Source of the DNA: Escherichia coli
Lineage (GTDB): Bacteria; Pseudomonadota; Gammaproteobacteria; Enterobacterales; Enterobacteriaceae
Length of the DNA stretch: 558 nt
Reading direction: 5' to 3' (one strand)
Assembly (NCBI RefSeq): GCF_003334255.1
Contig: NZ_QOWU01000223.1
The notes beneath the pieces were generated by a model that searched no databases, was not told the origin of the DNA, and worked only from the letters and a program-made list of their open reading frames with translations. The translations under genes were made by a program, and so were the position numbers. This document shows, one piece after another, positions 1 through 558 of this stretch. The first letter of the stretch is position 1. Every line of letters begins with the position of its first letter.

Positions 1-422
1 GCTGAAGCCATCATTAATGCAACATCATCCTCGCTGACATCCACCACATCTGCAGAAGGTGAAATATCGCCCCCTCCCTCCCCACCGAACCGGACGCCTC
101 CGGCAAGTCCTGCCGCTTTCTGCATCAGCATGTCTTCCTCATCCGGCATCTCCGTCTGCGCTTCCTCTCGCCGGGGAGCCAGCAGACTGAAATCCGAGGG
201 ATGCATATCCGGATCGCAAAAAAACAGGCTGAGTACGGCGTACATCAGCCCGGAAAAATGCATATCCAGTTGGGTATCCTGAAAATAATGCGTGCGGTAA
301 AAATGTCGCCAGTCGGCATATTCGGTGGATGTCATCCCGGCAAGCATGGCGCGCCAGTCAGGCCTCCCCATCTCACGCGCCAGTCTGAGGGCAAAATTCA
401 GCTCGCCGTCGAAAACTTTCCC
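1..422 (-). CDS. T: Phage tail assembly protein T-like domain, made as the -1 frame extension of G (G-T fusion by ribosomal slippage); 3' end lies beyond the left edge
   Basis: The minus-strand frame that is -1 relative to G is open from 431 down to position 1 with no stop (about 140 codons after the slip site). Upstream of 431 it is closed by several stops (plus-strand TCA/TTA at 432, 435, 438, 450, 474), so it cannot be translated independently from further upstream. Hand translation from the slip site: GKVFDGELNFALRLAREMGRPDWRAMLAGMTSTEYADWRHFYRTHYFQDTQLDMHFSGLMYAVLSLFFCDPDMHPSDFSLLAPRREEAQTEMPDEEDMLMQKAAGLAGGVRFGGEGGDISPSADVVDVSEDDVALMMAS... This closely parallels the lambda gpT portion of gpGT as I recall it (REMGRPDWRAMLAGM, DMHFSGL, LSLFF-DPDMHP-DFSLL, MQKAAGLAGGVRFG). 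First in-frame ATG is at 371..369; automated annotation may call an independent T CDS from there. Confidence 0.85.
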
Positions 423-558
423 GCAGAAAAATCATCATCAGTAAGCGCGTTATTTTTCGCCACTTCGGTGCTGTCAGTATCCGCATGAACAGCCCCGCTC
501 ATCCCGGACAGACGTAACACCACCTCTTCCGCCCGGGCAATGGCATCAGCCGGCCAGG
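398..558 (-). CDS. G: Phage tail assembly chaperone, lambda gpG-like; 3' portion only, 5' end lies beyond the right edge; stop codon TGA at 400..398
   Basis: Minus-strand frame is open from the right edge to a TGA at 400..398 (plus-strand TCA). Hand translation: ...WPADAIARAEEVVLRLSGMSGAVHADTDSTEVAKNNALTDDDFSAGKFSTAS*. The motifs VVLRLSGM and the C-terminal SAGK-x-ST-x-S closely resemble the C-terminus of lambda gpG as I recall it. The frame ends 6 codons after a GGGAAAG slippery heptamer, as in lambda G. Similarity is from memory, not a search. Confidence 0.85.
   Translation of the reverse strand, partial: WPADAIARAEEVVLRLSGMSGAVHADTDSTEVAKNNALTDDDFSAGKFSTAS
416..422 (-). promoter_or_regulatory. 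Programmed -1 ribosomal frameshift slippery heptamer G GGA AAG (recoding signal for G-T fusion)
   Basis: Plus-strand 416..422 is CTTTCCC, so the minus strand reads GGGAAAG. In the G frame the codons are GCG GGA AAG, giving the X XXY YYZ pattern. After a -1 slip the ribosome reads GGG AAA GTT TTC GAC, continuing into the open T frame. The heptamer identity and its position just before the G stop match the lambda G/T frameshift site. Confidence 0.8.

Follow-up and report, generated by a model that had tools for sequence, protein, structure and literature searches.

A lambda-type G/GT tail assembly chaperone locus in Escherichia coli and the chance-expected shadow open reading frame on its opposite strand

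Results

Identity and gene content of the locus

We analysed a stretch of E. coli DNA 558 bases long, which in its whole length is called the window here, and found it at 100% nucleotide identity, over all 558 bases, in the genome of Escherichia phage PhiR5_1 (PV340545.1, 35651..36208, minus strand). Several complete E. coli genomes also carry prophages that are 100% identical to the window, for example strain EC2 (NZ_CP058571.1), and DNA similar to it (at least 80% identity) is present in 1926 of the 5426 complete E. coli genomes. In PV340545 the window overlaps two features, 'tail component protein G' and 'tail component protein T', both on the strand that carries the genes here, and the top E. 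coli matches listed are annotated as 'phage tail assembly chaperone G' and 'phage tail assembly protein T'. Both PV340545 and the RefSeq prophage have their genes in the order V, G, T, H, V being the major tail protein and H the tape-measure protein. The window is best read as an interior piece of the late operon for tail genes in a lambda-like phage or prophage of E. coli, transcribed from the minus strand.

Six-frame translation revealed two long open frames on the minus strand, both truncated by the edges of the window (Table 1). The list of open reading frames (ORFs) that accompanied the sequence contains neither of them, because both touch the window ends and the list drops such ORFs; this is how the earlier note had explained their absence, and it is borne out, since G runs off past the right edge and T past the left. 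When the ORFs are recomputed with edge-truncated frames allowed, the C-terminus of G and the T frame are both recovered on the minus strand. What remained in the list was a single ORF on the plus strand. The note had called the list misleading, its only ORF being antisense to the real genes, and we agree: no other complete ORF in the window reaches 60 aa (the next longest have 50 and 43 aa), and G and T lie on the minus strand. The G and T frames of the window are real genes, because PhiR5_1 and E. coli prophages have annotated G and T genes to which the window is 100% identical.

A scan of both strands of the window for promoters and terminators found none. An Rfam scan of the window (E up to 1) gave a sole match, to the vertebrate lncRNA region HOXA11-AS1_6 (20..201, minus strand), which lies far under the gathering score (19 bits against 50; E = 0.079) and is attributed to chance.

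Table 1. Positions of the features discussed, in window coordinates
Feature	Position	Strand	Basis or remark
T frame, -1 relative to G	1..416	-	138 complete codons (416..3); C-terminal part of the GT fusion
Spurious antisense ORF, ATG start, 95 aa	201..488	+	No family; pN/pS 1.69; chance-expected
In-frame ATG, database start of a free-standing T CDS	369..371	-	GenBank and RefSeq/PGAP annotation
G/T overlap zone, two reading frames	398..422	-	Variants mostly synonymous in T; they change the G tail
3' end of G, tail assembly chaperone	398..558	-	52 codons plus stop 400..398; annotation, families, codon score
Slippery heptamer G_GGA_AAG, putative -1 frameshift from G to T	416..422	-	X_XXY_YYZ register of the G frame, as in lambda

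The G and T reading frames

The G frame is open from 556 down to its TGA stop, where it ends ...LTDDDFSAGKFSTAS, and it continues past the right edge of the window to a start that lies outside, at about window coordinate 829. PV340545 names this gene G, and RefSeq names its product gpG. The 52-aa fragment matches phrog_42 and phrog_32165, and weakly also TIGR01674, where its 27 bits fall under the cut-off only because the piece is a fragment; the complete G protein, taken from the phage locus of identical sequence, matches PF06894 (Phage_TAC_2) at 7.8e-48. The G frame aligns to lambda gpG and has a codon score of +0.36 bits per codon (52 codons; log-odds against the neighbouring tail genes). 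By its family matches, the upstream ORF is a member of the gpG family (PF06894, TIGR01674).

The T frame is open from 431, from where it reads FFCGKVFDGELNFALRLAREMGRPDWRAML..., down to 3, and it runs past the left edge for about 42 nt more. It matches TIGR01715 (phage_lam_T) with 185.1 bits, the cut-off being 77.35, as well as phrog_39 (1.4e-48) and phrog_32165 (9e-86). In Pfam, the reconstructed G-T fusion matches both Phage_TAC_2 (7.8e-48) and Phage_tail_T (PF06223, 1.1e-12). These matches assign the -1 frame downstream to the gpT family (PF06223, TIGR01715). A PDB sequence search with the GT fusion found no solved relative. The codon score of T is +0.27 bits per codon (138 codons; same log-odds against the neighbouring tail genes), and among the six frames over 201..395 only T scores positive on codon usage. 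On the 5' side, three consecutive TGA codons close the T frame at 440..432 (minus strand), immediately 5' of the slip site, and the frame is therefore firmly shut up to a point only a few codons ahead of the heptamer. Read in the G frame, these bases (432..440) become GAT GAT GAT, coding for Asp-Asp-Asp.

The T frame varies very unevenly along its length among relatives. Its C-terminal part (1..200, minus strand) is hypervariable and mosaic, with 74 variable columns in the first 100 nt, compared with 6 to 8 variable columns per 50 nt across 201..400, and some relatives carry in-frame indels of 3 and 9 nt in this C-terminal region. One group of relatives shows an identity of 45% in 1..84 yet 96% in 201..397, a contrast that suggests a recombination junction near position 85.

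The slip site between G and T

The heptamer GGGAAAG at 422..416 (minus strand) sits in the G frame with an index mod 3 of 2, equal to that of lambda, and each of the 81 loci examined (80 from IMG/VR, and lambda) has it at the homologous site. Re-reading one base at the heptamer joins ...DDDFSAGK to VFDGELNFALRLAREMGRPDW..., and the -1 fusion reconstructed in this way has 290 aa and aligns with lambda gpGT through the junction. G_GGA_AAG is highly shift-prone in E. coli, and in lambda low-level -1 frameshifting yields about 30 gpG for each gpGT, the G part binding the tape-measure protein and the T domain binding, and so recruiting, the major tail protein (PMC5009743). From lambda we infer that here too the T frame would be entered by -1 slippage at G_GGA_AAG, and likewise with what efficiency. 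Ribosomes translating G would mostly terminate at the TGA at 400..398 and release the chaperone gpG, and a small fraction of them would slip back by one base at the heptamer (422..416) and continue in the T frame to give the gpGT fusion.

An RNA stem-loop, a candidate stimulator of frameshifting, is predicted at 338..408 (minus strand), starting 7 nt 3' of the heptamer, with a folding energy of -35.1 kcal/mol (z = -2.0); it consists of two helices of 8 bp each, an outer one and an inner one rich in GC. It is mostly kept in 13 haplotypes, including lambda, with a few broken pairs and no compensatory changes.

The start of T

PV340545 and RefSeq/PGAP both present T as a free-standing CDS, of 137 aa, that begins at the ATG at 371..369, and record no ribosomal slippage. 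Such annotation was seen at window positions 369..422 (minus strand), at 2958..3371 of locus L001 and at 1458..1871 of locus L003. The 26-nt gap that the annotation leaves between G and T (372..397) is T-frame coding sequence and conserved at the protein level.

Changes that fall after the heptamer and ahead of the first ATG are silent or conservative when read in the T frame, but non-synonymous when read in the G frame. In the 54 nt that follow the slip site, eight nucleotide haplotypes yield only three T-frame peptides, which differ by V/A, N/S and R/K, and the same haplotype changes alter the tail of the G frame (F/S/P/C and A/V). Because eight haplotypes give only three peptides, the T frame is constrained as protein upstream of its only ATG; such protein-level constraint is what would be expected if T is entered by slippage.

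We weighed the alternative that T is produced mainly as a free-standing protein started at this ATG, and not by frameshifting from G. The in-frame ATG is there and GenBank and RefSeq both use it, but GAG abuts it directly and it is without a spaced Shine-Dalgarno. Moreover, the 15 T-frame codons that lead from the heptamer to the ATG are conserved as protein, in lambda too, with their nucleotides varying synonymously; the heptamer is invariant at the homologous site of every one of the 81 loci; and in lambda the only product described as containing T sequence is gpGT, which is made by frameshifting (PMC5009743). This makes a free-standing T very unlikely, and the ATG at 371..369 is probably not the biological start of T. 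The earlier note had gone further, stating that T has no canonical start of its own. Taken literally this does not hold, as an in-frame ATG exists, but its biological sense is implied by lambda and by the conservation upstream of that ATG: from these two we infer that T lacks an own start, a point which the sequence alone does not force. The annotated start has a small practical consequence. Because the public records of this phage and of its prophage copies begin T at the internal ATG without a programmed frameshift, protein databases lack both the fusion itself and the 15 codons with which the T part opens (VFDGELNFALRLARE).

Geometry of the antisense open reading frame

The plus-strand ORF opposes three different parts of the minus-strand genes: it faces T alone at 201..397, the overlap of G and T at 398..422, and only the 3' end of G at 423..488. 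The claim that it lies wholly opposite the gpT-like frame is thus right for 201..397 and wrong for 423..488; at its 3' end, 57 to 91 nt of the ORF face G and not T.

Across 201..397 each plus-strand codon shares its three bases with a T codon. Because the two frames are codon-aligned in this way, a plus-strand stop opposite T can arise only from the T codons TTA, CTA or TCA. This stretch of T has seven Leu and three Ser codons, none of which is TTA, CTA or TCA, and the plus frame is therefore open by default. In the neighbouring genes TTA and CTA make up 6.4% of the Leu codons and TCA 12% of the Ser codons, and from this usage the probability that the T stretch has none of the three is about 0.43. 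The nearest of these codons in T, a TCA at 62..60, closes the plus frame upstream, and the ATG of the ORF is one half of a palindrome, ATGCAT, that encodes Met-His on both strands. We then redrew the synonymous codons of G and T from the usage of the neighbouring genes, with the two proteins held fixed, and of 5000 such resamplings 12% contained a complete antisense ORF with 95 aa or more, and 36% one with 60 aa or more. The length of the plus-strand ORF is within chance expectation.

The composition of the 95-aa product had been described as low-complexity and rich in K, G, H and P. It is not of low complexity, its Shannon entropy being 3.94 bits against 4.0 for the T fragment. The four residues do account for 30 of its 95 residues, a larger share than we would expect in a typical protein, but A, S and V are no less frequent. 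This composition is a mechanical outcome of reverse-complementing T codons, with Lys arising from codons for Phe/Leu and His from codons for Met/Val; the K/G/H/P share as a whole is as expected from the reverse-complemented T codons for Phe/Leu, Pro/Ala/Ser/Thr, Met/Val and Trp/Gly/Arg.

Tests of the antisense open reading frame as a gene

Against the reading of the plus-strand ORF as a shadow of T and G stands the possibility that it is a real antisense overlapping gene, whose product would be a small, basic protein of the lambdoid prophages of this clade. Three observations speak for such a gene: of 48 distinct close relatives, 47 keep the frame open from the same ATG (the remaining one has a stop at codon 7); it is occasionally called as a hypothetical protein in E. 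coli genomes; and there is a GAGG motif just 5' of its ATG. The intactness in 47 of 48 relatives is weak as a sign of conservation, because these relatives are 96 to 98% identical in this stretch and had few chances to break the frame, and the stop at 486..488 is lost in 15 of the 48. In lambda, a TGA interrupts the homologous antisense frame, opposite a TCA Ser codon of T. With the lambda TGA and a stop position that varies among the close relatives, the ORF is not kept intact in diverged relatives.

Searches with the 95-aa product gave no family match in Pfam, PHROG or NCBIfam and no PDB family, the best hit of the PDB sequence search having only E = 0.17; the earlier statement that the product has no recognisable motif is in agreement with this. 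In a comparison with 5.8 billion protein clusters it matched only four clusters, all of them E. coli 'hypothetical protein' clusters with 1 to 3 members each. By tblastn, all four are translations of the same antisense DNA, and for this reason they do not count as independent homology; the absence of conserved hits that the note had anticipated is thus confirmed apart from these same-locus clusters, and a confident homology match, which would have spoken for a gene, is not among them. Only these four sporadic clusters were found although 1926 of the 5426 complete genomes carry the DNA. Two of the four matches, P0001 and P0003, run on into a different reading frame of the locus. P0003, an 83-aa sequence from an E. 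coli contig of 249 nt, joins the plus frame at 321..464 to the minus-strand T frame at 257..105, which is what a fold-back assembly chimera would produce, and not a real protein.

The pattern of substitutions also separates the two frames. Over 201..395, comparing the window with 47 distinct ungapped relatives, pN/pS is 1.69 in the frame of the plus-strand ORF and 0.29 in the frame of T, corresponding to 33 synonymous and 187 non-synonymous differences in the former and to 106.5 and 114.5 in the latter. The 28 variable columns of 201..397 fall at the third codon position in 15 cases for T and in 5 for the plus-strand ORF, and the substitutions concentrate on the first codon position of the ORF. 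There is thus no purifying selection to be seen in the ORF's own frame (pN/pS 1.69). Codon usage points the same way, with a score of -0.015 bits per codon for the ORF (log-odds against the neighbouring tail genes) compared with the positive values of T and G given above, and the codon-usage comparison proposed earlier accordingly favours the minus-strand frames. Third-position GC, the other proposed measure, is a weak discriminator between the ORF and T: the GC content at codon positions 1, 2 and 3 is 0.57, 0.44 and 0.53 for the ORF and 0.64, 0.42 and 0.59 for T. The codon log-odds score and pN/pS were used as discriminators in its place.

As regards signals for expression, a sigma-70-like promoter site was found on neither strand within the window, which includes the 200 nt upstream of the ORF, and the GAGG motif ends only 1 to 2 nt from the ATG, too near for a Shine-Dalgarno-like site to serve it. 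The ORF thus shows neither a promoter nor a ribosome-binding site of its own. A literature search on antisense expression and on ribosome profiling in the lambda late region turned up nothing that bears on it.

Taken together, a pN/pS of 1.69 in its own frame against 0.29 in T, a lack of family and structure matches, database matches that all come from the same locus (two of them frame-switching or chimeric), a codon score of about 0 with no promoter-like site, and a length reached in 12% of synonymous resamplings make a real antisense gene extremely unlikely. A variant of this idea, in which the ORF is a young, clade-specific overlapping gene on the plus strand of the tail operon, expressed for example in a lysogen with the late operon silent, we hold to be just as improbable. 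The plus-strand ORF is not a gene.

Discussion

Comparison with lambda and other known systems

The locus is best compared with the G and T genes of lambda. Alike are the gene order V-G-T-H, the heptamer G_GGA_AAG in the same register and the position of the T frame at -1; the Pfam and TIGRFAM families are the same, and gpG and gpGT align with their lambda counterparts over the whole length, including the junction ...SAGK/VFDGEL.... The DNA, in contrast, is only about 79% identical to that of lambda over the alignable part, and the C-terminal region of G upstream of the slip site and the C-terminal tail of T differ, with indels. A further difference lies in a Ser codon of the lambda T gene, TCA, where the PhiR5_1-type phage has ACA for Thr; because its T uses this TCA, lambda is without a long antisense ORF. 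With PhiR5_1 and the EC2 prophage there is no difference in sequence, the identity being 100% over the 558 bases with G and T on the same strand, and their annotation starts T at the internal ATG with no slippage.

The plus-strand ORF in turn resembles the long 'shadow' ORFs that lie codon-aligned and antisense to bacterial genes, in which stops come only from the sense codons TTA, CTA and TCA, rare here, and in which substitutions follow the sense gene. We see no material difference from such ORFs, other than that the last third lies opposite a second gene, G, in another relative frame.

Interpretation and significance

The minus strand carries the already-known lambda-type G/GT tail assembly chaperone locus, and the plus-strand ORF is a shadow ORF of a kind expected by chance. 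The best combined explanation, a lambda-like tail operon with a G/GT frameshift on the minus strand and a non-gene at 201..488 on the plus strand, has in our estimate a probability of roughly 0.94.

What follows from this is mainly a point of quality control. When a window is short, an ORF list from which edge-truncated frames are dropped can contain nothing but a shadow ORF and leave the real genes out of sight, and the genes hidden here are the textbook G/GT frameshift pair of lambda. The finding on the antisense ORF is correct but ordinary, and the locus leaves the known biology unchanged.
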